A DNA stretch of 10,593 nt from a virus, in the UHGV virus genome UHGV-0266384; one strand, written 5' to 3'. Shown in pieces: positions 196 through 10,593 of this stretch. Positions within the stretch are counted from its first letter, which is position 1; each line of letters begins with the position of its first letter. Both the position numbers and the translations under genes were made by a program. The notes below the pieces were generated by a model. The model was not told the DNA's origin and did no database searches. It was given only the letters and a program-made list of their open reading frames with translations.

Positions 196-272
196 CGGCA
201 CGTAGCGCAGCCTGGTAGCGCACCGTCATGGGGTGTCGGGGGTCGGAGGTTCAAATCCTCTCGTGCCGACCA
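196..272 (+). tRNA. proL: tRNA-Pro, anticodon GGG, with encoded CCA end
   Basis: 77-nt cloverleaf read by hand: acceptor CGGCACG/CGTGCCG, D-arm GCGC-AGCCTGGTA-GCGC, anticodon loop AUGGGGU (anticodon GGG), T-arm GGAGG-TTCAAAT-CCTCT, then ACCA. Matches my memory of E. coli proL. Confidence 0.9.
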
Positions 273-279
273 AATCGCC

Positions 280-380
280 CACCGGATACCACCGGAATTA
301 ACAGTTTTTAGACACGAAAAGCCCGCTAATCCTTGATTGGCGGGTTTTTTTATGTTTTTTAGTCACCGAACATCACCGGA
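280..380 (+). repeat. Two pairs of tandem CACCGGA heptamers with 10-bp phasing, between the tRNA and int (candidate integrase arm-type or AlpA binding sites)
   Basis: CACCGGA at 280-286 and 290-296; CACCGAA at 364-370 and CACCGGA at 374-380. A third identical pair lies upstream of alpA (2194-2200, 2204-2210). Confidence 0.45.
322..351 (+). terminator. Rho-independent terminator of the tRNA transcript
   Basis: Stem CCCGCTAATC / GATTGGCGGG (one G-U pair), 3-nt loop, followed by TTTTTTT. Confidence 0.75.
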
Positions 381-405
381 TTTATAAGCTATCAGCCGGA
401 TTTTT

Positions 406-457
406 TAGTTATACGTTTAGTTATACGGGCTGGCGTATAACTAAAGCCGTATAACTA
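406..457. repeat. Four copies of the 10-mer TAGTTATACG in a symmetric array (two direct, two inverted) in the int promoter region
   Basis: TAGTTATACG at 406-415 and 418-427; reverse complement CGTATAACTA at 434-443 and 448-457. Sits 35-85 bp upstream of the int start. Confidence 0.5.
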
Positions 458-490
458 AAACCCTGTTTTTTCGTGTGGAATCATAGGCAT

Positions 491-1732
491 ATGGCGAGAA
501 AAACAACCCCATTAACTACAGTGCAGATCAAAGCAGCCAGGCCAGCTGAAAAGGAGTACACCCTACAGGACGGCGGGGGGCTTTTTCTCCTGGTCAAACC
601 GTCCGGATCAAAACTCTGGCGATTTTCCTACTACCGCCCGTCTGACAAAAAAAGAATATTGCTGAGTTTTGGATCACTTGATGATGTTTCCCTGGCTGAT
701 GCCAGAAAACGCCGTAGCGAGTACAGGACGTTAATCAGTGCCGGAACTGACCCGCAGGACCATGAACGGAAAAAACGTGAGGCAGAGGCCATAAGACAGG
801 GGAACACGTTCGAAAATGTGGCGGCAGCATGGTACAAGGTGAAAATCAGCCAGAATCTGGCCCCCAATACGATTAAAGACATCTGGAGATCGCTGGAAAA
901 ATATGTATTCCCGTTCATCGGTAACACGCCAATAGACACCCTGACCGCTCGCAGGTTCGTTGAGGTGCTTACCCCCATCAAGGAACGTGGCAACCTGGAA
1001 ACACTCAAACGGGTTTTACAGCGAGTCAATGAAGTAATGGATTACGCCGCCAACAGTGGGCTTATTGATACCAATCCGGCTATGAATGTGCGTAAGGCGT
1101 TCCCCTCCCCTGTAAAAAAACATATGCCAACAATCCGCCCCGAGCAGCTACCGGAGCTTATGCAGGCTTTATCAGTATCGGCAACAGAACGGCAGACCAG
1201 ATTACTGATTGAATGGCAGTTACTGACCGTAACCCGTCCCGCCGAAGCGTCATCAACGCGGTGGGATGAAATCGACATGGACGCGAAGCGATGGACGATA
1301 CCCGCCGGACGCATGAAGATGCGGCGTGATCACGTTATCCCGCTTTGTAGTCAGGCCATGGCAGTACTTGAAGCTATGAAGCCAATCAGCCACCACCGTG
1401 ATTACGTTTTCCCGAGTCTGAAAGACCCACGGCAGCCTATGAACAGCCAGACCGCCAACGCAGCATTGAGGCGTATGGGGTTTGGCGGGGTTCTGGTTTC
1501 TCACGGTATGCGAGCCATATTCAGCACCGCAGCGAACGAAGAAGGATTTGAGCCGGACGTAATCGAGGCCGCACTAGCCCACGTGGACACCAACGAAGTG
1601 AGACGGGCATACAACCGGAGCAACTACATAGAAAAACGCATTGTGCTTATGCGCTGGTGGGGCGAATTTGTCGAGGCTGCGGCGACGGGCGTAACCCTGG
1701 CCAGTGGTAAAAGGGGTATCCGAGCCGTGTAG
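491..1732 (+). CDS. int: Tyrosine site-specific integrase, P4/CP4-57 type, with N-terminal arm-binding domain
   Basis: 413 aa from ATG 491 (the track's GTG 473 start is in the same frame). N-terminus LTTVQIKAARPAEKEYTLQDGGGLFLLVKPSGSKLWRFSYY is the classic P4-integrase arm-binding (DUF4102-type) signature. The C-terminus carries the catalytic HxxR / Y region (HGMRAIFSTAANEEG ... RRAYNRSNYIEKR). Position next to a tRNA 3' end in the same orientation is typical. Confidence 0.92.
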   Translation: MARKTTPLTTVQIKAARPAEKEYTLQDGGGLFLLVKPSGSKLWRFSYYRPSDKKRILLSFGSLDDVSLADARKRRSEYRTLISAGTDPQDHERKKREAEAIRQGNTFENVAAAWYKVKISQNLAPNTIKDIWRSLEKYVFPFIGNTPIDTLTARRFVEVLTPIKERGNLETLKRVLQRVNEVMDYAANSGLIDTNPAMNVRKAFPSPVKKHMPTIRPEQLPELMQALSVSATERQTRLLIEWQLLTVTRPAEASSTRWDEIDMDAKRWTIPAGRMKMRRDHVIPLCSQAMAVLEAMKPISHHRDYVFPSLKDPRQPMNSQTANAALRRMGFGGVLVSHGMRAIFSTAANEEGFEPDVIEAALAHVDTNEVRRAYNRSNYIEKRIVLMRWWGEFVEAAATGVTLASGKRGIRAV

Positions 1733-1740
1733 CTGTACAG

Positions 1741-1785
1741 AAAACCAGTAAAAACTACGAAAACCATGTAAAACCGTCGTATAAT
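1741..1785 (+). promoter_or_regulatory. Phased A-tracts (curved-DNA / UP-like element) followed by a perfect TATAAT
   Basis: AAAACC-type tracts at 1741, 1751, 1760 and 1770 (about 10-bp period), then TATAAT at 1780-1785. There is no good -35 hexamer. Confidence 0.35.
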
Positions 1786-1809
1786 TGCATCAAATTTAAC
1801 GACAAGGCC

Positions 1810-2061
1810 GTGAAACATGAAACCGTTAAGATGCAAAAAAATATCAGATGCAATTGCGACGGGCTGCAACTGGCCCTGATGGTTCAGCATGAATTTTGGT
1901 CAACCTACGATCCGGAGGACAGGACGACGGCCCCATCAAAAAAACAGGTAGTAGATTTTCTGGTATCCCGTGGCGCTTCCAGAAATCTGGCGGTAAGTAT
2001 TGATAAGGTCGTACGTCCGGCATCTATGAAGATCGGAGGCAGGCCCAAAAAATGGCGGTAA
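1810..2061 (+). CDS. Hypothetical small basic protein (83 aa from GTG 1810; alternative ATG start at 1831)
   Basis: ORF followed 11 nt later by a strong intrinsic terminator. I do not recognise a family; the C-terminus GGRPKKWR is AT-hook-like. The start codon is uncertain and the Shine-Dalgarno is weak. Confidence 0.4.
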   Translation: MKHETVKMQKNIRCNCDGLQLALMVQHEFWSTYDPEDRTTAPSKKQVVDFLVSRGASRNLAVSIDKVVRPASMKIGGRPKKWR

Positions 2062-2072
2062 CAATCCTGGAA

Positions 2073-2095
2073 GCGGCAGAAATGCCGCTTTTTTT
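2073..2095 (+). terminator. Rho-independent terminator
   Basis: GCGGCA-GAAA-TGCCGC followed by TTTTTTT. Confidence 0.8.
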
Positions 2096-2124
2096 ATAAT
2101 TCCATTTCAAATCATCAATATAAA

Positions 2125-2210
2125 AAACGGTGTATACCGTTTAAAAACGGTGGGAACTGTTTTTACCCATATCCGATGATTTACCGTATTTGTCACCGGA
2201 ATACACCGGA
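2125..2210 (+). promoter_or_regulatory. alpA upstream control region with palindromes and a CACCGGA tandem pair
   Basis: AACGGTGTATACCGTT palindrome (2127-2142), overlapping ACCGTTTAAAAACGGT, then CACCGGA at 2194-2200 and 2204-2210. Confidence 0.4.
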
Positions 2211-2228
2211 TTCACAAGGTAAATCACG

Positions 2229-2435
2229 ATGGAAGCAATCAGAAAAATTATCTTTCGCCAGGAAGTAAAAAAAATTATCCACATCAAGGCAGACAGCACG
2301 CTGCAAAGCATGATCAACGCCGGAGAATTTCCGCAGGGTTTTCGCGTTGGTTTACGCCGTCGCGGATGGTATGAGGATGATGTGTTGGCCTGGCAGAAAG
2401 AACGCGAACAGGAAGCACGCGGAACGGCTGCTTAA
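2229..2435 (+). CDS. alpA: AlpA-family phage transcriptional regulator / excisionase-like (MerR-type HTH)
   Basis: 68 aa. The stretch RQEVKKIIHIKADSTLQSMINAGEFPQGFRVGLRRRGWYEDDVLAW fits the AlpA pattern (helix ... GEFP ... G.R...W...V..W) as I remember it from CP4-57 AlpA. The int - small ORF - alpA order is typical of P4-like islands and PICIs. Confidence 0.8.
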   Translation: MEAIRKIIFRQEVKKIIHIKADSTLQSMINAGEFPQGFRVGLRRRGWYEDDVLAWQKEREQEARGTAA

Positions 2436-2583
2436 CGGGTATCACAGATATGACAAACACGAAAAAAGCGGCCCCGATATGGAGCCGTCTTTCTGAACAG
2501 ATAACCCGCTGCGCTGTTTGTGTGTGTGATCCCAAACATAAGCACGGGGATGATAGCCGCTATCAGGCTGGTGGGCAATGCAA

Positions 2584-2760
2584 TCAGTCTGGTTCAGTTC
2601 GTTGCCATAACTGCGAAGCTCTCTCCTTTGATGAGTATTCTTTAAGGTACTTCTCAAGGGCAAAAGAACACGGCGCGAATCGTTCTGATTCATGCTCTTT
2701 CTTTCTGCGTCGTCTTTTTCGTGCAGGTGATGTTTTTTCGGTTGATTCTTCGTTGGTCAT
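2584..2760 (-). CDS. Hypothetical small basic protein (58 aa), below the ORF-track length cutoff
   Basis: Hand translation of the minus strand: MTNEESTEKTSPARKRRRRKKEHESERFAPCSFALEKYLKEYSSKERASQLWQRTEPD. It is in the same frame as the RHH ORF at 2818-2997 and separated from it only by one TAA and 19 sense codons. Shine-Dalgarno is weak. Confidence 0.3.
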   Translation of the reverse strand: MTNEESTEKTSPARKRRRRKKEHESERFAPCSFALEKYLKEYSSKERASQLWQRTEPD

Positions 2761-2817
2761 TGTGTGCGCCTGTAAAGCAATGCGCCGGAGTACCTCACAC
2801 CACGGCGCTGATAGTTT

Positions 2818-2997
2818 TTATCCTTTGGGTTCTATGCCGCGTTGCTGTAATTCTTTGCGGATTATTCGCTTTATCCAGGCAGCAAGAGAATCATCGCCGT
2901 CCTGTTGTTGTGCCTTTTCCATCTTTTCCCGTAAGTCAGGATCTAAACGGAACTGGAACGGAGGATTACCACGCCTTTCGTTTTTGTGTGTTGACAC
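2818..2997 (-). CDS. Ribbon-helix-helix (Arc/CopG-like) small DNA-binding protein, 59 aa, candidate repressor of the divergent switch
   Basis: Hand translation of the minus strand from GTG (SD GAGGTG 8 nt upstream): MSTHKNERRGNPPFQFRLDPDLREKMEKAQQQDGDDSLAAWIKRIIRKELQQRGIEPKG. The pattern of a beta-strand with alternating hydrophobics (FQFRL), then helix, then Gly-containing turn, then helix is that of Arc-family RHH proteins. Missing from the ORF track only because it is under 60 aa. Confidence 0.55.
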   Translation of the reverse strand: MSTHKNERRGNPPFQFRLDPDLREKMEKAQQQDGDDSLAAWIKRIIRKELQQRGIEPKG

Positions 2998-3046
2998 GTT
3001 AATTACACCTCATGTAATGTATTTATGTGTAATGACACATTACACA
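2991..3046 (+). promoter_or_regulatory. Early rightward promoter with operator palindromes
   Basis: Perfect -35 TTGACA (2991-2996), 16-bp spacer, -10 TGTAAT (3013-3018). A 21-bp perfect palindrome TGTGTAATG-ACA-CATTACACA (3026-3046) lies just downstream, with a third TGTAATG half-site at 3013-3019 overlapping the -10. The -35 overlaps the start codon of the minus-strand RHH ORF. Confidence 0.6.
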
Positions 3047-3126
3047 CAATCAACACAAAAAGCAAAGCCCCGCACTGTAGGAGCAGTAACGGGGCTTCTA
3101 ACCAACAACGTAAACTAGGAGCCGTT

Positions 3127-3324
3127 ATGGTTGCCGTAAATCATATACCACACCTTGTACACACACAAACGGCCTTTGTGTGGCGTTTTCTGGCACTGAG
3201 TGCCGGAGAATCTCAAATCATCCACGTAACCGCCTGGACGGAACGCGAAGCGCGTAGCCGTTGCCCGTCCGGTTGTGTTGCTGTATTCGCCGCCCGTATT
3301 CGTCAGGGGTCACATCATGCGTAA
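3127..3324 (+). CDS. Icd-like small protein (host cell-division inhibitor family), 65 aa
   Basis: Strong SD AGGAG 6 nt upstream of ATG 3127 (the track's longer 3025 start lacks an SD). Motifs FVWRFLALS ... TEREAR ... FAARIRQG resemble the P1 Icd / P4-like Icd-like family as I recall it. A paralogous C-terminus is repeated in the next gene. Confidence 0.5.
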   Translation: MVAVNHIPHLVHTQTAFVWRFLALSAGESQIIHVTAWTEREARSRCPSGCVAVFAARIRQGSHHA

Positions 3325-3781
3325 AAACCGCTTGCAAAAAATTATCACGGGGCTGTATGCTTCCCCCGTCGCCCACATGGCGACCGGGTTTGACAGCCTG
3401 AATACATCTGGCGGACAGCCGCCCACATCCGATAAGCGGTTTTTTTGTGTCCGTAAACCTACCCATACCCGCATTATGGCGGGGCGTAACGGGGGAGCCT
3501 TTGTGCTCGCTGGTTTCCAGATGACCAGTCTGTCAACCCTGTTACGTCTCGCCACCATGTTTGACAGCGTAGTAGCGAGACTCCTTAAAATTCATCTGGG
3601 AGCCTTTCACATGGCTGTATCCGCACGCCCTTATTTTGTCTGGCGCTTTATGCAGTGCCTGACAGACAGTATTGCAATATTCACCGTTACCGCTGCCACT
3701 GAGCGCGAAGCACGTGCACAGCTGCCGCACGCACATCTTATTTTTGTCGCCCGTATTCGCCAGGGGGGGAGTCATGCATAA
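3317..3781 (+). CDS. Ash-like / Icd-like protein (154 aa), or alternatively only the C-terminal 56-aa Icd-like paralog starting at ATG 3611
   Basis: ATG 3317 overlaps the previous stop (ATGCGTAA) with SD AGGGG upstream. The C-terminal 56 aa (YFVWRFMQCL ... TEREARAQ ... FVARIRQGG) are paralogous to the gene at 3127-3324 and have their own SD (GGGAG) and ATG at 3611. The N-terminal 98 codons overlap a repeat-rich, hairpin-rich region, so their coding status is uncertain. Confidence 0.45.
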   Translation: MRKNRLQKIITGLYASPVAHMATGFDSLNTSGGQPPTSDKRFFCVRKPTHTRIMAGRNGGAFVLAGFQMTSLSTLLRLATMFDSVVARLLKIHLGAFHMAVSARPYFVWRFMQCLTDSIAIFTVTAATEREARAQLPHAHLIFVARIRQGGSHA

Positions 3782-4001
3782 AATACCCTTTGATGTTCTT
3801 GTTCATTCTGAAAACGCATTAATCCGCGCAAAGGAAATGGACGCATTACTACTTAAGTTAATTGATGTGCCGGAAAGTGGCGATGAATCTGATTCAATGA
3901 TGTTTTCTGCCGTGCGTACGCTATTAACGCCTGTTATTAATGAATTAAATACAGTGATGGCAATTCACGAGAATAATAAAGCGCAGCACACCGGAGAATA
4001 A
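3774..4001 (+). CDS. Hypothetical small acidic protein (75 aa)
   Basis: ATG 3774 overlaps the previous stop (ATGCATAA) and follows a strong SD GGGGGGGAG. MHKIPFDVLVHSENALIRAKEMDALLLKLIDVPESGDESDSMMF... No family recognised. The track's longer 3672 start is unlikely. Confidence 0.55.
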   Translation: MHKIPFDVLVHSENALIRAKEMDALLLKLIDVPESGDESDSMMFSAVRTLLTPVINELNTVMAIHENNKAQHTGE

Positions 4002-4006
4002 AAAAC

Positions 4007-4306
4007 ATGAAAAATAAAAATTCTGGCGTTACTGCCAGCGGCCCCGCTCGTCCTGAATTTATGAACGGCGATATTTACCGCGATAAATATGGCGGCATGG
4101 TAACGATTAAAGGCGTGGCAGAACGGCGCATCACCTACCGTCGTGAAGGCTACGAATATGATTGCGTGATGCCTGTTTATCAGTTTCGGCGTGATTTTTC
4201 TCTGGTACAGGCAGCGCCCCGCAGTAAACCAACCAGCAGGGAGAAAGCACGCGCCAATATTCAGGAAATAAAAAAGATGCTTAACGTATTCAGGGGTAAA
4301 AAATGA
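4007..4306 (+). CDS. Hypothetical small protein (99 aa), translationally coupled to the primase; possibly DUF4222-like
   Basis: SD GGAGA upstream of ATG 4007; the stop overlaps the primase start (ATGA). The motif YRDKYGGMVTIKGV...RRITYRREGYEYDCVMPVYQFRRDF reminds me of a small prophage DUF family, but I cannot confirm it. Confidence 0.55.
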   Translation: MKNKNSGVTASGPARPEFMNGDIYRDKYGGMVTIKGVAERRITYRREGYEYDCVMPVYQFRRDFSLVQAAPRSKPTSREKARANIQEIKKMLNVFRGKK

Positions 4307-6051
4307 AACTGGCACCGAACGTAAAAAAACAGCCACGCGGAATAAAACACAAAGACACAGAGGTAATTATTTTCGCGGGTAGTGATGCCTGGTCGCACGC
4401 GAAACAATGGCAGGAGCAGGATGGCCCCGCATCCGGCGATAATGTGCCGCCTGTGTGGCTTGGGCCAAATCAGCTTGCCGAACTTGATGCACTGAAAATT
4501 GTTCCGGATGGGAAAAAGCGCGTAAGGCTGTACCAGGCCGGAGAACTGGATTTGGTGGAGACCAAAAAGATTGGTCAGAAGCTGGCGGCGGCAGATATTC
4601 AGGACGCAAATTTTTACCCCGAAGGAATGCACGTCCAGAAGTGTGAAAACTGGCGGCGCTATCTGAATGCTGAGCGTGAAAATATTGCCGCAGGGCTTAC
4701 CATGCCGGAGCAGAAAAATACGCAACTGGCACAAATGGCAGACAGTGAGCGCGCGCAGCTGCTTGCCGAGCGCTTTGATGGCGTTTGTGTGCATCCGGAA
4801 AGTGAAATCGTTCACGTATGGCGCGGCGGGGTATGGTGTCCGGTCAGCACAATGGAACTTAGCCGCGAAATGGTGGCGATCTATTCAGAGCACAGGGCCA
4901 CTTTCAGCAAGCGCGTAATCAATAACGCCGTGGAGGCGTTAAAAGTTATTGCCGAACCAATGGGCGAGCCGTCCGGCGATTTGCTGCCGTTCGCCAATGG
5001 TGCGCTTGACCTGAAAACGGGGGAATTTTCCCCGCACACGCCGGAGAACTGGATCACCACGCACAACGGCATTGAGTACACGCCACCAGCACCAGGGGAG
5101 AATATCTGCGACAACGCGCCAAACTTTCATAAATGGCTTGAGCACGCAGCCGGAAAAGACCCGCGCAAGATGATGCGTATATGTGCCGCGCTGTACATGA
5201 TTATGGCGAACCGGTACGACTGGCAGATGTTTATTGAGGCCACCGGAGACGGCGGGAGCGGCAAAAGTACATTCACCCACATCGCCAGCCTTTTAGCGGG
5301 GAAACAAAACACGGTAAGCGCGGAAATGACATCGCTTGATGATGCTGGTGGGCGTGCGCAGGTTGTCGGGAGTCGTCTTATCGTCCTGGCAGACCAGCCG
5401 AAATATACAGGCGAAGGCACGGGCATCAAGAAAATCACGGGCGGCGACCCCGTGGAAATCAACCCGAAATATGAAAAGCGTTTCACTACGGTAATCAGGG
5501 CGGTGGTGCTGGCGACCAATAACAACCCGATGATATTCACCGAACGGGCCGGAGGCGTGTCACGTCGTCGGGTTATTTTCCGCTTCGACAATATCGTAAG
5601 CGAGGCAGAAAAAGACAGGGAGCTACCGGAAAAGATCGCGGCTGAAATCCCTGTCATTATCCGCCGCTTGCTGGCGAACTTTACCGACCCTGAGAAGGCA
5701 CGGGCTTTACTACTGGAACAGCGTGACGGTGATGAAGCTCTGGCAATAAAGCAACAGACGGATCCGGTTATTGAGTTTTGCCAGTTCCTGAATTTTCTGG
5801 AGGAAGCACGCGGCCTGATGATGGGCGGCGGTGGCGATTCAGTGAAGTACACAACCAGAAACAGCCTTTACCGCGTCTATCTGGCGTTTATGGCATACGC
5901 AGGCAGGAGCAAACCGCTAAACGTGGCTGAGTTCAGCAAGGCCATGAAGCCAGCGGCAAAAGTTTACGGACATGAATATATTACGCGGAGAGTTAAGGGA
6001 GTAACGCAGACCAACGCAATTACAACTGATGATTGTGACGCGTTTTTATAA
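4303..6051 (+). CDS. Primase-helicase, P4 alpha / D5-like SF3 helicase (the PICI pri-rep equivalent)
   Basis: 582 aa. SF3 helicase motifs are present: Walker A GDGGSGKST (about nt 5245-5271), motif B RLIVLAD, motif C VVLATNNNP. It is immediately followed by an iteron array, as expected for a replication initiator. Confidence 0.85.
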   Translation: MKLAPNVKKQPRGIKHKDTEVIIFAGSDAWSHAKQWQEQDGPASGDNVPPVWLGPNQLAELDALKIVPDGKKRVRLYQAGELDLVETKKIGQKLAAADIQDANFYPEGMHVQKCENWRRYLNAERENIAAGLTMPEQKNTQLAQMADSERAQLLAERFDGVCVHPESEIVHVWRGGVWCPVSTMELSREMVAIYSEHRATFSKRVINNAVEALKVIAEPMGEPSGDLLPFANGALDLKTGEFSPHTPENWITTHNGIEYTPPAPGENICDNAPNFHKWLEHAAGKDPRKMMRICAALYMIMANRYDWQMFIEATGDGGSGKSTFTHIASLLAGKQNTVSAEMTSLDDAGGRAQVVGSRLIVLADQPKYTGEGTGIKKITGGDPVEINPKYEKRFTTVIRAVVLATNNNPMIFTERAGGVSRRRVIFRFDNIVSEAEKDRELPEKIAAEIPVIIRRLLANFTDPEKARALLLEQRDGDEALAIKQQTDPVIEFCQFLNFLEEARGLMMGGGGDSVKYTTRNSLYRVYLAFMAYAGRSKPLNVAEFSKAMKPAAKVYGHEYITRRVKGVTQTNAITTDDCDAFL

Positions 6052-6065
6052 TTTTTTGTAAAAGT

Positions 6066-6289
6066 CCTCTACCCCATCCACCTGAATGAAATAAACGCAT
6101 ATTATTCAACATGATAAGTGGGTAGAGGGCTAGGTAGAAGGCTAATAAAACCTCTCTACCTCTTCTACCATGATTAAGATCGTTTGTGAGGGGCGGGTAG
6201 AGGATGGGTAGAGGGCCACGAAAGCCCTCTACCCATCTGAAAGCCGCGCCATTACTGACATGAAAGATGATTAGGTAGAGAGGTAGAGG
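6066..6289. repeat. Iteron-type replication origin (candidate ori): at least 9 copies of GGTAGAGG / CCTCTACC
   Basis: GGTAGAGG or one-mismatch variants at 6121, 6133, 6196, 6207, 6274 and 6282; CCTCTACC or variants at 6066, 6151-6170 and 6226. Includes the perfect inverted pair GGGTAGAGGGC-7nt-GCCCTCTACCC (6206-6234). AT-rich spacers lie between the copies. Confidence 0.7.
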
Positions 6290-6337
6290 AGGTGCACCAC
6301 AACCTAAAACTTTTTAAACACGAGAGTAAAAATAAAA

Positions 6338-6616
6338 ATGCACACATCAGGAAGATTTAACAAATCACTCAAAAAACGCAAAGACAGAACAGCACCAAGA
6401 TATAAAGCGCTGGAGATGACAGAGCACGCCTTAAAGGTGGCTATAAAGGTGATAGACATCACAGCGGGAGAAGGATACTCGAAAGCACATCCCGAACTAA
6501 TAAGCGCATTCATGACCACGGCGGCGGCAAACTTTGCCACGCTGACAGAGCGGGAGATTGCAGAAGCGGAACAGGTAACAACCATCAACGTTAAAACCGG
6601 AGAGCAGACAGCATGA
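6338..6616 (+). CDS. Hypothetical protein (92 aa), translationally coupled to ssb
   Basis: The ORF's stop overlaps the ssb start (ATGA). No family recognised and the start codon is uncertain (weak SD). Confidence 0.45.
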   Translation: MHTSGRFNKSLKKRKDRTAPRYKALEMTEHALKVAIKVIDITAGEGYSKAHPELISAFMTTAAANFATLTEREIAEAEQVTTINVKTGEQTA

Positions 6617-7023
6617 CAGCACAGATAGCGGCTTACGGGCGGCTGGTGGACGACCCGCAGGTAAAACAGACCAGCAAGGGCACACCAATGACGCTGGCAC
6701 GTATGGCGGTATCGTTGCCATGTAGTCAGGCGCAGGATGGGCAGGCTACGTTATGGCTATCGGTGATGGCATTTGGTAAGCAGGCCGACTTCCTGGCTAA
6801 ACATCAAAAAGGCGACGTTGCCAGCGTATCCGGCACGATGCAGGTCAGCCAGTGGACCGGACAGAACGGGGAAACGCGGCAGGGTTATCAGGTTATTGCA
6901 GACAGCGTAATCAGTGCCCGTGCGGCACGTCCTGGCGGGAACAGACGCAAAACCACAGGCACACAGGGTAATCAGCCACCAGCGGGAGGCGATGACCCTT
7001 ACGGTGATGATATTCCGTTCTGA
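6613..7023 (+). CDS. ssb: Single-stranded DNA-binding protein (phage-type SSB)
   Basis: 136 aa with an OB-fold-like N-terminal region and a Gly/Pro-rich tail ending in the hallmark acidic C-terminus ...DDPYGDDIPF (E. coli SSB ends ...DFDDDIPF). Confidence 0.8.
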   Translation: MTAQIAAYGRLVDDPQVKQTSKGTPMTLARMAVSLPCSQAQDGQATLWLSVMAFGKQADFLAKHQKGDVASVSGTMQVSQWTGQNGETRQGYQVIADSVISARAARPGGNRRKTTGTQGNQPPAGGDDPYGDDIPF

Positions 7024-7033
7024 GGGGGTGAGG

Positions 7034-7306
7034 ATGGTACATGACCGCATAGCGGAGGAACTCGAGGCAAAAGGCTTTTACCGGAGGGCGGCGGCACGAT
7101 GGGGTGAAGTCATGCAGCTGGTGGAGACAGACAAGGAACGGCATCAGGTTACGATGCGACGGCTGGAATGTTCCAGGAAGGCACAGAGGCCACCGGAGCC
7201 GCCGGATAACTTCGGAGACCTGAGAAAGGCAGTCGATCGCACTTATGCTGAAATGGGTATAGATGGTGTAAGCGATGAAATATGGCGTAATTACCCAGGC
7301 AGCTAA
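7034..7306 (+). CDS. PerC/Pch-family-like transcriptional regulator (90 aa)
   Basis: ATG 7034 with SD GGGGGTGAGG (the track's 6914 start would overlap ssb). The N-terminal motif RIAEELEAKGFYRRAAARWGEVM resembles the PerC family signature as I recall it. Followed by two terminators. Confidence 0.45.
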   Translation: MVHDRIAEELEAKGFYRRAAARWGEVMQLVETDKERHQVTMRRLECSRKAQRPPEPPDNFGDLRKAVDRTYAEMGIDGVSDEIWRNYPGS

Positions 7307-7311
7307 TCAAC

Positions 7312-7334
7312 AGCCGGAGTAATCCGGCTTTTTT
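7312..7334 (+). terminator. Rho-independent terminator
   Basis: AGCCGGA-GTAA-TCCGGCT followed by TTTTT. Confidence 0.8.
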
Positions 7335-7340
7335 GTACCC

Positions 7341-7383
7341 AAAAAAAGCCCGATAAGTACAGGAGGCATCTTATCGGGCTTTT
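7341..7383. terminator. Second hairpin, potentially a bidirectional terminator
   Basis: AAAAAAA, then GCCCGATAAG - 12-nt loop - CTTATCGGGC, then TTTT. Confidence 0.6.
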
Positions 7384-7461
7384 GCATATGAGGTTTTTTT
7401 TGGCGCACTGACACACATGATCGGGATCATCATTTCATAATTTGCAACACAACTCAACATC

Positions 7462-7490
7462 ATTGCATAAAATGCAATCATGATTATAAT
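7462..7490 (+). promoter_or_regulatory. Late (capsid operon) promoter with operator palindrome
   Basis: -35 TTGCAT (7463-7468), 16-bp spacer, perfect -10 TATAAT (7485-7490). The 17-bp perfect palindrome ATTGCAT-AAA-ATGCAAT (7462-7478) overlaps the -35. Confidence 0.55.
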
Positions 7491-7546
7491 CAGATCTGGA
7501 TGAACATCCAGTTATGATTTTTTAAGTCAAAGAGGAATTTCTTACT

Positions 7547-7753
7547 ATGGCTGAAGAGAAAAAAGGCGGTGTTTCGGTGTACATAAGCCCCGACATCGTG
7601 AAGGCGCTCAAGGAACGCCACCAGCAGAACGTAAAAGCAGGCATTGCGGCAGGACTTGATCCGCTGGCGATGGTTGAGCCGTCAACAGGCTGGCAGGTAC
7701 GCGCCTATTTACGCGCGGCGCTGGGTATGAATCAGGTTCACGGGGGTGAATAA
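7547..7753 (+). CDS. Hypothetical small protein (68 aa), first gene of the capsid operon
   Basis: SD AGAGGA 9 nt upstream of the ATG; the stop overlaps the major capsid start by 1 nt (TAATG). No family recognised; position suggests a scaffold or assembly role. Confidence 0.55.
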   Translation: MAEEKKGGVSVYISPDIVKALKERHQQNVKAGIAAGLDPLAMVEPSTGWQVRAYLRAALGMNQVHGGE

Positions 7754-8808
7754 TGACAGTAAAAGCAATATCACTTAACACTAACCAGCTTTTTGCGTAC
7801 CTGAATCGCGAGGATATTGCGGAATTTAAATTCAGTCCGCTGTTTACCGCGCTGTTTTTCCCGAACGTGGCGACATTCAACACACAGGACATCATGTTAG
7901 ATAACCTGGATATTGAAGAAGTCACTATGTCGGCGTTTTGTTCGCCTATGGTGGGTAGCCAGGTTCAGCGCGATAAAGGGTACGAAACAAGCATTATTCG
8001 CCCTGGCTACATGAAGCCAAAACACGAAATCGATCCATTAAAAACAATAATGCGCATGGCTGGAGAAGATCCAGCACAGCTTAACGACCCTACCTACCGC
8101 CGTATGCGCCTGATTACTGGCAACATGCGCCGCCAGATAAACGCCATTAAAGCGCGCGTGGAATGGCTGGCGGTAAATGCGGTAACGACCGGAAAAAACA
8201 TCATTGAGGGCGAAGGCATAGAGCGCTATGAAATCGACTGGAAGATACCGGAAAAAAACATCATAGAGCAGGCCGACGGTAAAAAATGGTCAGAGCAGGA
8301 CAAAGACATACACGACCCAATCTATGACATTGAGCTATACGCAGATCAGGCAGGTTGCCCCGCAAACGTCATGATTATGGGCGTTGATGTATGGCGCATG
8401 TTACGCAGCTTTAAAAAATTCCGTGAACTGTACGATCTCTCCCGTGGTTCAGAATCCGCCGCAGAGCTGGCATGTAAAAACCTGGGAGAAGTGGTGAGCT
8501 TTAAAGGCTATCTTGGTGATCTGGCCCTTATCGTCTATTCCGGCAAATACACTGACAGCGACGGCACAGAAAAATATTTCCTTGAGCCTGATTTGCTGGT
8601 CCTGGGCAACACCAACAATAAAGGGCTGGTGGCCTATGGTGCGATTATGGAACAGGAAGCGGTAAGAACGGGCGCAACGCAAAACATGTTTTACCCGAAA
8701 AACTGGATTGAAGACGGCGATCCGGCGATTGAGTACGTGCAGACACACAGCGCACCGCAGCCTGTTCCGGCAGATATTCGCAAATTTGTTACCGTCAAAA
8801 TTGGTTAA
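7753..8808 (+). CDS. Major capsid protein, lambda gpE family
   Basis: 351 aa with multiple blocks matching lambda gpE from memory: EFKFSPLF (KFKFDPLF), RPGYMKPKHEIDP (TPGYVKPKHEVNP), DPTYRRMRLITGNMR (DPAYRRRRIIMQNMR), LGDLALIVYSGKY (YGDVAIVVYSGQY), YPKNWIEDGDPAIEY (YPKNWVTTGDPAREF), C-terminal KFVTVKIG (EFVSVQLA). Confidence 0.88.
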   Translation: MTVKAISLNTNQLFAYLNREDIAEFKFSPLFTALFFPNVATFNTQDIMLDNLDIEEVTMSAFCSPMVGSQVQRDKGYETSIIRPGYMKPKHEIDPLKTIMRMAGEDPAQLNDPTYRRMRLITGNMRRQINAIKARVEWLAVNAVTTGKNIIEGEGIERYEIDWKIPEKNIIEQADGKKWSEQDKDIHDPIYDIELYADQAGCPANVMIMGVDVWRMLRSFKKFRELYDLSRGSESAAELACKNLGEVVSFKGYLGDLALIVYSGKYTDSDGTEKYFLEPDLLVLGNTNNKGLVAYGAIMEQEAVRTGATQNMFYPKNWIEDGDPAIEYVQTHSAPQPVPADIRKFVTVKIG

Positions 8809-8819
8809 CGGTGGATTCT

Positions 8820-9155
8820 ATGAACACTCCATACATTGAGTTATTTGCAGGCAGTCAGCAGGTATCAACGACGCTGGTACATTTTGCCGCTGATGCTGGC
8901 GTTATTCAGGAATTTACCCCGCTGATGCTGGCGGACAATGGCGAGTTTAAGCCGTGGGATGGTCAGGAATCTGGCAAGGCTGTTTATCTGACCTCGTACC
9001 CCGTTGACACGTCGACGCAGAAATCAGCACAGTGCTATAAGACGGGGATATTCAATATCGCCGCCGTTAACTGGCCTGAGAGCGTCGACACCGATGCGAA
9101 AAAATGCGCCGCCTTTGCGGGTTCTGGCGTATCCGTTCAGCCGCTGGCCCGATAA
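8820..9155 (+). CDS. Head decoration protein, lambda gpD family
   Basis: 111 aa from ATG 8820 (the track's GTG 8811 is in the same frame). TPLMLADNGEFKPWDG matches lambda gpD TPLMLDTSSRKLVAWDG; YKTGIF...WPE...DAKKCAAFAGSGVSV matches gpD YKSGTF...WPE...ETKKRTAFAGTAISIV. Confidence 0.75.
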   Translation: MNTPYIELFAGSQQVSTTLVHFAADAGVIQEFTPLMLADNGEFKPWDGQESGKAVYLTSYPVDTSTQKSAQCYKTGIFNIAAVNWPESVDTDAKKCAAFAGSGVSVQPLAR

Positions 9156-9167
9156 GCAGGGGGAACG

Positions 9168-9581
9168 ATGGCAACGAATGAAAGCATCATGGCGCTACCG
9201 CTGGCGAGTAAATTTAAAGCCGAAGCGCGGGCAATGGCTGACAGAGGGTTATCAACCTACGAGGCCGTATATCAACTCAACAAACTGGAAGAACAGGACA
9301 AGCCGCGCGCTGATGCGATTATGGCGCTTCATGAACATAACGACTATCAGCCGCTGTTACGTGCAATGGCAAACGTGCCATGTATTAGCGTCGATAATGC
9401 TCGTGAAATCCTGAACATGACCATAGAGCAGGAGCGCCCAAAGGTTGCACCAGAGCTTACCGCAGCCTTTGAAAACTTTATGGACATGCACAGCCCGCAA
9501 GCCGTATCAGCTGGCATGGCATACGATGGCAGAAACCAGGGCGATGACGGCGACATCGATCACATACTGAAAACCATCTGA
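9168..9581 (+). CDS. Hypothetical protein (137 aa), last gene before cos; possibly packaging- or head-related
   Basis: Strong SD GGGGGA upstream of the ATG; followed by a strong terminator. No family recognised and no clear match to lambda FI or FII. Confidence 0.6.
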   Translation: MATNESIMALPLASKFKAEARAMADRGLSTYEAVYQLNKLEEQDKPRADAIMALHEHNDYQPLLRAMANVPCISVDNAREILNMTIEQERPKVAPELTAAFENFMDMHSPQAVSAGMAYDGRNQGDDGDIDHILKTI

Positions 9582-9587
9582 GACAAG

Positions 9588-9611
9588 GCCGGAGAAATCC
9601 GGCTTTTTTTT
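9588..9611 (+). terminator. Rho-independent terminator of the capsid operon
   Basis: GCCGGA-GAAA-TCCGGC followed by eight T residues. Confidence 0.85.
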
Positions 9612-9830
9612 ACGGGTCCTTTCCGGCATATGGACCCGTTACGGGGCGGCGACCTCGCGCGTTTTCACTATTTATGAAAATTTTCCGGGATCCATGTCCG
9701 GTTTCTCTGCAAGTTAACCATATGAAAAATATAAAAACATGCTTTCTATGAACCGGACATGCGCAAAAAACAGACACTAAAACCGGACATCGTACCCGTT
9801 AACCGGAAGTGTGCAAAAATCACACGCATT
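9609..9830 (+). other. Lambda-type cos site, copy 1: cosQ-like, cosN, and cosB with R-like repeats
   Basis: TTACGGGTCCTTTCCGG ... GTTACGGGGCGGCGACCTCGCG ... GTTTTC(A)CTATTTATGAAAATTTTCCGG is near-identical to the lambda cos junction as I remember it. The 12-nt cohesive end GGGCGGCGACCT is at 9644-9655. Downstream there are three or four AACCGGACAT(G/C)-type repeats in both orientations (9691-9826), consistent with terminase small-subunit binding sites. Confidence 0.8.
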
Positions 9831-10099
9831 GCTGCGCGTGATTAACAATTTATCGGCTTTACTGTTCTGTATAGGCTGGGTGGCGTCATGCCGTAGCCGT
9901 TCTCCGTGCCAGCATGGAATAATCCGTAGTTACAGAGCGGTAAAGTTAAAAATCACTTTCTGTTACGCCATCAAATACGCGATACAACAACCATGTGTTT
10001 TTACAAAACCATTTGATATCATTGAATTTTTTCACATTAATGACATCAAAATACATCGTAAGGTTGTTGTATTTATTTTATTTTTACCTTACTTATCAA

Positions 10100-10213
10100 T
10101 TAGATATACCAAACAATTAAACAACAACCACCCCCTCAAAAAATCTCATAAATAGCGAAAAACCGCGAGGTCGCCGCCCCGTAACGGGCCATAATTCCAG
10201 GAAGGACCCGACG
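10100..10213 (-). other. Second lambda-type cos site (copy 2) in inverted orientation, with a divergent cosB-side flank
   Basis: The reverse complement reads CGGGTCCTTCCTGG ... CCCGTTACGGGGCGGCGACCTCGCGG TTTTTCGCTATTTATGAGATTTT. cosN is identical to copy 1 over 25 bp (10164-10188 against 9635-9659), with the GGGCGGCGACCT complement at 10168-10179. The flank beyond TATTTATGA differs (GAGGGGGTGGTTGTTGTTTAATTG...). Confidence 0.75.
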
Positions 10214-10243
10214 ACACCAGACTATCAGAGCGATGGGGGCACA

Positions 10244-10525
10244 ATGACAGAAGCCGAACTACTGGGATTAATCCGCCGCGTTACCGGAATCAGCCAGCAG
10301 CATGACGAACAGGCCACACAGCCGGACAGCGTGACCGCTGAAAATTATGTGCGTGTTGTTGCTGAGGTGATGCGCCGTGATGGTATAGAACTTAATGGCG
10401 TGGATATGCGCAACATACGAACCAGAGTTCTTGAGTTGCTGGCCTACCGTCGCCGCGTGGAGATGTATCGGGAGAAGGAGAAAATAACGTACCACTGGAA
10501 GAAGCCGGAACGACTGCGTACGTAA
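10244..10525 (+). CDS. Hypothetical protein (93 aa) immediately distal to the cos region
   Basis: SD GGGGG upstream of ATG 10244; the stop is embedded in a 17-bp perfect palindrome CGTACGTA-A-TACGTACG (10517-10533). No family recognised. Its position next to cos suggests a packaging-related role, but this is not supported by sequence. Confidence 0.5.
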   Translation: MTEAELLGLIRRVTGISQQHDEQATQPDSVTAENYVRVVAEVMRRDGIELNGVDMRNIRTRVLELLAYRRRVEMYREKEKITYHWKKPERLRT

Positions 10526-10593
10526 TACGTACGGACATCGAGATAAAGACGGTTTAACCATCCATTAAAAATCAACGTGATTTTGTGCTTTCC

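Follow-up and report, generated by a model that had tools for sequence, protein, structure and literature searches.

Putative integrase arm-type sites and candidate AlpA sites in the attL region of a PICI-like satellite integrated in a tRNA-Pro gene

Phage lambda and mycobacteriophage L5 recombine their attP with a heterobivalent integrase (Int) that has arm-type sites on both arms, and a phased array of Xis sites between core and arm sites bends the DNA. The Xis sites of lambda are found on the arm that is remote from the int promoter, and the int gene of the lambda prophage does not stand beside its own arm sites. Here, we compare these and other described systems with a stretch of 10,593 nucleotides from the viral genome UHGV-0266384 (the whole stretch is called the window in the following), which carries a PICI-like phage satellite (PICI, phage-inducible chromosomal island) with int, an alpA-like gene, a D5-type primase gene and a capsid gene in the proL tRNA gene. 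Region 258-490 is attL of this island, integrated into tRNA-Pro, and contains two repeat families. The layout is ordinary, of the KplE1 and lambda type, but it is newly mapped for this island family. We favor, with moderate confidence and judging from sequence comparison, the reading that attL combines Int arm-type sites (TAGTTATACG) with AlpA sites (CACCGGA), and that the latter are repeated at alpA.

In the KplE1 (CPS-53) attL of E. coli (Panis et al. 2010; PMC2951348), as in the window, int adjoins attL at a tRNA gene, and the core is followed by directionality-factor sites (candidate ones in the island) and then by arm sites in front of int. The IntS arm-type P' sites and the TorI sites overlap PintS there, and Int and the directionality factor can thereby repress int; two more arm sites are found in attR, as in relatives of the island. 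The directionality factors differ, TorI in KplE1 versus an AlpA-like protein in the island, and so do the protein families and the sequences. Unlike KplE1, the island also has a terminator between its site clusters, an arm array of two direct and two inverted copies, and a pair of candidate factor sites at the proposed factor's own gene. Apl of phage 186 (PMC7498355), Cox of P2, Vis of P4 and RdfS of ICEMlSym (PMC11963761) are small winged-helix proteins that act on direct repeats one turn apart at att and at a promoter and couple excision to a transcriptional switch, as we tentatively propose here for AlpA. While Apl, Cox and Vis mostly repress, AlpA of PICIs has been reported as a positive autoregulator, and while RdfS is without a clear consensus, the sites of the island have a sharp CCGG core. 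Finally, helper-embedded PICIs with int and alpA, as here, contain a "doubled motif", two copies of tgTGTATTGCa with a 12-bp tandem period, which was reported to be absent from other PICIs and for which the authors left undecided whether the arm domains of Int or AlpA are involved (Mageeney et al. 2023; PMC10111431).

The sequence-only reading had described a symmetric four-copy array at 406-457 immediately upstream of int. Four exact copies of TAGTTATACG are indeed present, two direct (406-415, 418-427) and two inverted (434-443, 448-457), and any other copy in the window has at least two mismatches. The symmetry, however, is imperfect, with a spacing of 12 bp in the direct versus 14 bp in the inverted pair, and the repeat unit comprises 12 nt (TTTAGTTATACG at 404-415 and 416-427; CGTATAACTAAA at 434-445 and 448-459). 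On three lines of comparative evidence, namely a pair of the same kind in attR, a fixed geometry, and co-variation with the N-terminal domain of Int, the array almost certainly is the arm-type site set of the integrase, a role that had been suggested for one of the two families from the outset.

As the window ends 5' of its own attR, relatives were used for the attR arm. A search of the right end for the same motifs, which the sequence-only reading had proposed, revealed a TAGTTATACG-type direct pair in the attR arm of L001 (the closest E. coli island), L163, L164 and L093. In L001, it reads TAGTTATACG-tt-TGGTTATACG. L163 combines an attL array of TAGCTACACG/TAGCTATACG with an attR pair consisting of TAGCTACACG twice, and in L164, TAGTTATAYG and TGGATATACG are related between the arms in the same way. 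A word search in these four elements returned the array motif as the only substantial word common to attL and attR arms, and the repeat differs from the core sequence. In all four elements, the attR-arm pair has its starts at -83 and -71 relative to the left edge of the core block CTCTCGTG. The co-oriented pair of attL begins at +137/+149 or, in the window type with its 11-bp insertion, at +148/+160. The copies of the doubled motif of helper-embedded PICIs are likewise co-oriented and lie about 81 bp before and about 132 bp after the attP centre. In place of its core TGTATTGC, the elements studied here have TAGTTATACG and its variants, making the array an analogue and not the same motif. Moreover, doubled-motif PICIs belong to a different integrase clade and target prophage late genes as opposed to a tRNA gene, and the island adds two inverted copies.

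In one relative, L093 (an 8,050-bp IMG/VR contig), P arm, core and P' arm are contiguous at 3988-4305 with the same layout as in the other elements, and this stretch therefore represents attP, of either an excised circle or a tandem insertion, and suggests that the element family is still mobile. Comparison of the att sites places the predicted crossover somewhere within the core identity block 258-274. The tRNA fragments at attR bear small deletions, ctctcgtg--gaccaaa in L001 (27877-27895) and ctctcgtgcc-----aaaaa in L163 (29062-29080) and L164 (23167-23185), and in this they match the "tRNA fragment damage" typical of PICIs (PMC10111431).

The arrangement of two direct and two inverted units directly 5' of int is kept across genera while the 10-mer itself varies: it is TAGTTATACG in the window, E. 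albertii, Pectobacterium and Brenneria, TAGCTATAC in Pantoea and Edwardsiella, TAGGACTAGA in Erwinia, Citrobacter and Rosenbergiella, TAGGCATA in Brenneria L3-3Z and TAGTAACATC in Shewanella. The variants (TAGTTATACG, TAGCTACACG, TAGGACTAGA, TAGGCATA, TAGTAACATC) agree between both arms. Int of L007 and L008 is 90-92% identical to Int of L003 and L004, elements with TAGYTATAC arrays, from residue 101 to the end, but only 51-54% identical in residues 1-72. The N-terminal domains of L007 and L008 are 86% identical to each other and 71-74% identical to that of L015, and all three elements have TAGGACTAGA arrays; among TAGGACTAGA elements, identity over residues 1-72 is 71-86%. L014 shows the same pattern when set against L010. 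The 10-mer is thus exchanged together with the N-terminal domain and without regard to the catalytic domain, so that the array follows the arm-binding part of Int and not the rest of the element. In Int of the window, Arm-DNA-bind_3 spans residues 8-94 (Pfam, E = 3.3e-23). The residues that differ belong to conserved stretches of the N-terminal part, namely YTLQDG..LLVKP, SGSKIWRFNYY (which is SGVKTWQLRYY in the swapped group) and KKRALISFG; presumably, these stretches are strands of the arm-binding fold. For the analogous doubled motif of this clade, the domain swaps point to the arm-binding domain of Int, and they bear on the ambiguity between Int and AlpA in helper-embedded PICIs.

The near-palindromic two-plus-two layout directly before int, reaching within 2 nt of the int start codon in many relatives, would also suit an operator for a dedicated dimeric or tetrameric int repressor. 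We regard such an operator as highly improbable, since the other arm, remote from any int promoter, holds a co-oriented pair at constant distance, since the array motif co-swaps with the N-terminal domain of Int, and since no conserved candidate repressor gene is apparent in the loci examined, where one small open reading frame (ORF) in the int-alpA gap was tested and found to be absent from most relatives. In L003, L007, L009-L013, L015, L016, L136, L138 and L140, only 2 nt lie between the end of the last inverted arm site and the int ATG, too little for a Shine-Dalgarno sequence; int of these relatives may be poorly translated or have a near-leaderless mRNA.

The second family is built on CACCGGA. 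This heptamer occurs eight times in the window (280, 290, 374, 2194 and 2204, plus single copies at 3989, 5241 and 7191 inside the island) as opposed to 1.2 expected occurrences, and none of 200 shuffled sequences reached eight. For CACCGRA-N3-CACCGGA, there are exactly three matches (280-296, 364-380, 2194-2210) versus 0.14 expected. Pairs with a 10-bp spacing had been reported at these three places, and the spacing was confirmed, with exact units at 280-296 and 2194-2210; the first unit of the pair at 364-380, however, reads CACCGAA, with one mismatch, and is joined by an additional phased unit, AGCCGGA at 394-400, 20 bp after the one at 374. The two attL clusters are 84 bp, or 8 helical turns, apart in the window.

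Homologous islands do carry both motif families, and at conserved positions. Most IMG/VR loci end at the int start codon and few were usable for attL; our alignment comprised 26 non-redundant attL regions. At nearly all tRNA/tmRNA-junction loci, the order in attL is core, two to three YCGGW units 10 bp apart, terminator hairpin, up to three further units, and array. The YCGGW units are offset from the array by 10, 30, (40) and 94/104/114(/124) bp, of which 10 and 30 recur in most relatives across genera and 40 is confined to E. coli-type elements, and this register is kept across genera though the terminator between the clusters differs in sequence. In front of alpA, a CCGGW pair 10 bp apart is situated just 5' of the ribosome site for most AlpA homologues of this family, including those from Escherichia, Edwardsiella, Erwinia, Pectobacterium, Brenneria and metagenomic contigs, while the remaining upstream region is unalignable. 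A weight matrix was derived from ten non-Escherichia alpA-upstream pairs only and scanned over the entire window. Positions 2192 (pair before alpA) and 278 (core-proximal attL pair) were joint first with 21.7 bits and position 362 (core-distal attL pair) was next with 16.0 bits; the only other high scores, 13.1-18.4 bits on both strands, fell on palindromic terminator hairpins (9585 and 7310). In shuffled sequence, the third-best score averaged 9.2 and reached 13.4 at most.

Units of 10 and 12 bp can stem from replication slippage, and their number does vary among close relatives; entire 10-bp units have been gained or lost, so that L089, L091 and L093 possess three of them next to the core and L137 possesses three upstream of alpA. 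That the repeats are slippage products or chance matches without function nevertheless has a next to negligible probability in our view, as the counts far exceed the shuffled expectation and the positions are conserved to about 1 bp across genera amid diverged flanks.

Recombination directionality factors have direct repeats with a period of one helical turn as their sites and bind to promoters as well (PMC7498355; PMC11963761; PMC2951348). The CACCGGA-type sites have this form, being direct repeats 10 bp apart at 280/290, 364/374/(394) and 2194/2204, and within att they are confined to one arm, where they separate the core from the arm-type sites. Comparison among the elements indicates that they are probably bound by AlpA. 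AlpA is present in nearly every element with such sites, and the sites change in one lineage: in L164 and L002, CGTT replaces CGGA both in attL (ATCGTT, GCCGTT) and before alpA (TTACCGTT). AlpA of this lineage is 63-65% identical to that of the window, and its presumed recognition helix changes from SDSTLQSMINAGEFP to SDSTLTKMVNKGGFP. The array of the L002/L164 lineage still is TAGTTATAYG, and residues 1-72 and 101-end of its Int are each 83% identical to those of the window. Because L164 combines the CGTT shift with the same host species (E. coli), the same tRNA gene and an unchanged array, a host factor and Int are both unlikely binders. ORF 1831-2061, the only other small ORF nearby, was considered as well and rejected, as most relatives with the sites lack this ORF, and as it has no family matches.

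Int is present in all elements with CACCGGA-type sites and the first unit abuts the presumed core-type site to the right of the crossover, which led us to consider these sites as a second class of Int sites, extra arm-type or extended core-type, with the copy before alpA allowing Int to regulate alpA. We judge this very unlikely. The attR arm of the relatives has no phased CACCGGA-type pair, its CCGGA words being confined to the terminator hairpin; the sites shifted to CGTT in L164 and L002 while Int, in both domains, and the array remained constant; and the swaps of the Int N-terminal domain in L007 and L008 altered the array but left the phased sites unchanged.

A role of the second family as an operator controlling int, as the sequence-only reading had put forward, did not find support: a position between core and arm sites in a fixed helical register is that of a directionality factor. 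Because AlpA activates its own promoter but not Pint in the related PICI EcCICFT073 (PMC6092414), an int-operator role is disfavored and a recombination role of the attL sites is favored. The suggested link between excision control and alpA expression has held up better, the phased pair before alpA being conserved in relatives, and one protein plausibly connects the two processes. AlpA of PICIs activates its own promoter and is needed for excision, and its over-expression alone yields excised circles (PMC6092414; PMC11773190); for AlpA of PICMI satellites, action in the excision complex rather than via transcription has been proposed (PMC10803314). In our literature search, we did not find a description of an AlpA DNA target in PICIs. 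The candidate target offered here, present at the alpA promoter as well as within attL, is a direct repeat of NCCGGW with a 10-bp spacing. Gram-negative PICIs rely on AlpA for induction and excision, and if the assignment is true, this target would explain how one small protein couples both: AlpA would then double as direct excisionase and as master activator in these PICIs, and the two jobs of the 68-aa protein would be accounted for. Specialists are thus provided with a specific AlpA operator candidate and an Int arm-site code, and the fixed geometry (arm pair at -83/-71, phased sites, terminator, two-plus-two array before int) can serve to delimit attL and attR of such islands.

Transcription of alpA in PICIs depends on the helper phage (PMC6092414; PMC11773190), and the CACCGGA pair sits in the alpA promoter region. 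The CACCGGA-type sites could consequently be bound by an inducer encoded by the helper phage, possibly its excisionase, which would directly trigger alpA and excision in a manner similar to P2 Cox at the P4 late promoter. Cross-talk between PICIs and helper excisionases has been reported (PMC11773190), and site variation between elements could follow different helpers. We consider this explanation unlikely, because over-expression of AlpA alone gives excision without helper phage (PMC6092414; for PICMI, PMC10803314), so that no phage protein is needed at attL. In addition, the CCGG core has been kept across many genera whose helpers presumably differ, as has the AlpA recognition region, and an inducer could have its target in a distinct palindromic repeat at 2123-2162. 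A version in which the CCGGA-type phased sites serve as the satellite's helper sensor, such that a helper protein at the alpA promoter and attL fires alpA and excision directly, appears quite unlikely to us. The repeat at 2123-2162, 5' of alpA, consists of two 20-bp units, AAAAACGGTGTATACCGTTT and AAAAACGGTGGGAACTGTTT, each an imperfect palindrome (AAACGGT...ACCGTTT), which have been conserved in L162 and L163, islands with 75% identity, and could constitute an operator for the alpA switch, for example for a helper-phage factor.

Several observations weigh against AlpA as the common ligand or against the assignment of the two families as a whole. The protein of the window scores 17.6 bits with Pfam AlpA, under the 21-bit cut-off. 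The AlpA recognition region is highly conserved in the family and a clear shift of the sites is seen in one lineage (two loci) only, which amounts to weak co-variation; the pairs upstream of alpA in Pectobacterium and Brenneria vary in their flanking bases, while those in attL are nearly constant. A distance of 19-35 bp between the pair and the alpA start codon is odd for a classical activator site. The two-arm argument for the array rests on relatives that are 75-96% identical and not on the window's own attR. Finally, a scan of 250-2300 for consensus sigma-70 promoters yielded none for int or alpA, the sole match lying on the minus strand (2145-2117). An own-versus-other comparison of alpA-upstream and attL sites, done by eye and unscored, disclosed no fine-scale co-variation; what stands out is the conserved CCGG core and the shift in L164/L002. 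In Shewanella L020 and L021, which have a canonical AlpA, no convincing motif common to attL and the alpA upstream region was found, and these two loci therefore do not bear on the question.

Membership of the 68-aa product in the AlpA/excisionase family is indicated by a match to PHROG 66, "excisionase and transcriptional regulator" (E = 5.5e-7), and by a profile of 13 homologues that matches PDB 8c3t, "AlpA family phage regulatory protein" (E = 5e-6). Among these homologues, 13 of 13 match Phage_AlpA and 10 of 13 match HTH_17. A literature search on PDB 8c3t returned nothing relevant. The antitermination model of Pseudomonas aeruginosa AlpA was rejected for the island: that protein is unrelated and much larger, contacts DNA with residues 128-142 and has the name alone in common with the 68-aa product of excisionase-type family described here.

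Taken together, AlpA and Int could act at this locus as follows. Int bound to the four arm units and the attR pair would bridge arm and core DNA and build the recombination complex. In the prophage state, Int at arm sites directly before its own start codon probably limits int transcription, by analogy with KplE1 IntS and P4 Int (PMC2951348). Once a helper phage switches on alpA, AlpA would bind head-to-tail at 2194-2210 and reinforce or limit its own synthesis. AlpA bound in addition to the phased clusters at 280-296 and 364-400 would bend attL, and the bent attL would let array-bound Int reach the core and, with the attR pair, excise the island rather than integrate it. Since no consensus promoter was found, statements on promoter overlap stay inferential. 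If any repeat set overlaps the int promoter, it would be the arm-type array itself, leading to Int autoregulation as in KplE1 and P4 (PMC2951348); TATAAC hexamers are present within the inverted copies at 434-459 and could be -10 elements of a predicted int promoter.

A hairpin is conserved at the position of the terminator between the two CACCGGA clusters in nearly all relatives at tRNA/tmRNA junctions, with differing sequence. The terminator of the window probably takes the place of the native tRNA terminator and protects int against read-through transcription. The consensus for integration host factor (IHF), WATCAANNNNTTR, has no match in attL of the window or in the attR arm of L001, a difference from lambda and L5; one match was found in the terminator loop of the L093 variant. 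This IHF-like site in the attL terminator loop conforms to the consensus in the L093 type (4141-4153, AATCAAGTGATTA, minus strand) and is imperfect in the window (326-338, AATCAAGGATTAG).

Table 1. Positions of att-site elements, proposed protein-binding sites and genes in the window
Feature	Position	Strand	Basis
tRNA-Pro(GGG) gene, proL locus; recombination core in 3' part	196..272	+	ARAGORN and E. coli locus annotation
Core identity block CTCTCGTGCCGACCAAA, common to attL, attR and attP of related islands	258..274	+	attL/attR comparison in L001, L163, L164; contiguous attP in L093
Core-proximal pair CACCGGA-tac-CACCGGA, direct, 10 bp apart; proposed AlpA (directionality factor) sites	280..296	+	Pattern scan; matrix 21.7 bits
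Intrinsic terminator, 16-bp stem and T run, between two CACCGGA clusters	316..357	+	Sequence scan
Core-distal phased cluster, CACCGAA 364, CACCGGA 374, AGCCGGA 394; 40, 30 and 10 bp before the arm array; proposed AlpA sites	364..400	+	Pattern scan; matrix 16.0 bits
Two tandem TTTAGTTATACG copies, proposed Int arm-type sites, co-oriented with attR pair	404..427	+	attR pairs in L001, L163, L164, L093; co-variation with Int N-terminal domain
Inverted pair of copies (plus-strand reading CGTATAACTAAA), proposed as additional Int arm-type sites	434..459	-	Array scan and relatives
int, heterobivalent tyrosine integrase	491..1732	+	Pfam Arm-DNA-bind_3, Phage_int_M, Phage_integrase; NCBIfam PRK09692, E = 4.7e-166
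CACCGGA-ata-CACCGGA, 19 bp before alpA start codon; proposed AlpA autoregulatory site	2194..2210	+	Pattern scan; matrix 21.7 bits
alpA-like gene, 68 aa, divergent member of the AlpA/excisionase winged-helix family	2229..2435	+	Pfam, PHROG 66, family profile versus PDB 8c3t

The window begins in the terminal part of yejM, which precedes the tRNA-Pro(GGG) gene; in the corresponding region of E. coli, the locus downstream of yejM is annotated as proL. The alpA-like gene is followed by an Icd-like gene, a DUF4222 gene and the D5-type primase gene; genes for SSB, PerC, major capsid and decoration proteins follow further downstream, as judged by homology to L001. A query comprising int to alpA was at least 80% covered at one place in about 287-371 of 5,426 complete E. 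coli genomes, including Nissle 1917, with nucleotide identities of 92-96% for the window type (best match 96%) and about 75% for the variant type. EcCICFT073, the PICI with published AlpA reporter data, was sought in two stretches of 45-49 kb from CFT073, which contained a lambdoid prophage and host genes only. The copy in L001 is decaying: its int (16491-17732) has an internal stop according to the annotation, and alpA begins with ATA at 18229. In the copy of the window, unlike L001, int and alpA are both intact.

Words related to CACCGGA are also frequent elsewhere in the island. The hexamers CCGGAG (17 on the plus strand, 0 as reverse complement) and ACCGGA (20 versus 4) are the most over-represented ones on the coding strand of 273-10593, with a density of about 2 per kb in the island; each strand of host DNA has about 0.3 per kb. 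Some of them are ribosome sites (3990 before ATG 4007; 6596 before ATG 6613), and others are distributed over all three frames within the int, primase and capsid genes. A third repeat family, (A/G)AACCGGACAT, has the ACCGGA core in common with the CACCGGA family and occupies region 9697-9807, with copies at 9697 (minus strand) and at 9752, 9782 and 9802 (plus strand), the latter spaced by 30 and 20 bp. The segment with these repeats is oppositely oriented in L001 (26640-26745). It is flanked by inverted copies (about 9625-9672 and about 10148-10195) of an element of ~45 bp, tcataaatagYgaaaaMcgcgaggtcgccgccccgtaacggg, which enclose the inverted segment together with an AT-rich stretch of ~250 bp that is absent from L001. 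The inverted copies suggest a past inversion or insertion, or else a promoter segment that can invert. The non-coding region at the right end varies among close relatives, each of which has its own repeats; ATGTTAAC(TACC) is found ~5 times in L001 (27520-27660) and GTGACA five times in L093 (3797-3845), and these repeat sets may be packaging or replication sites.

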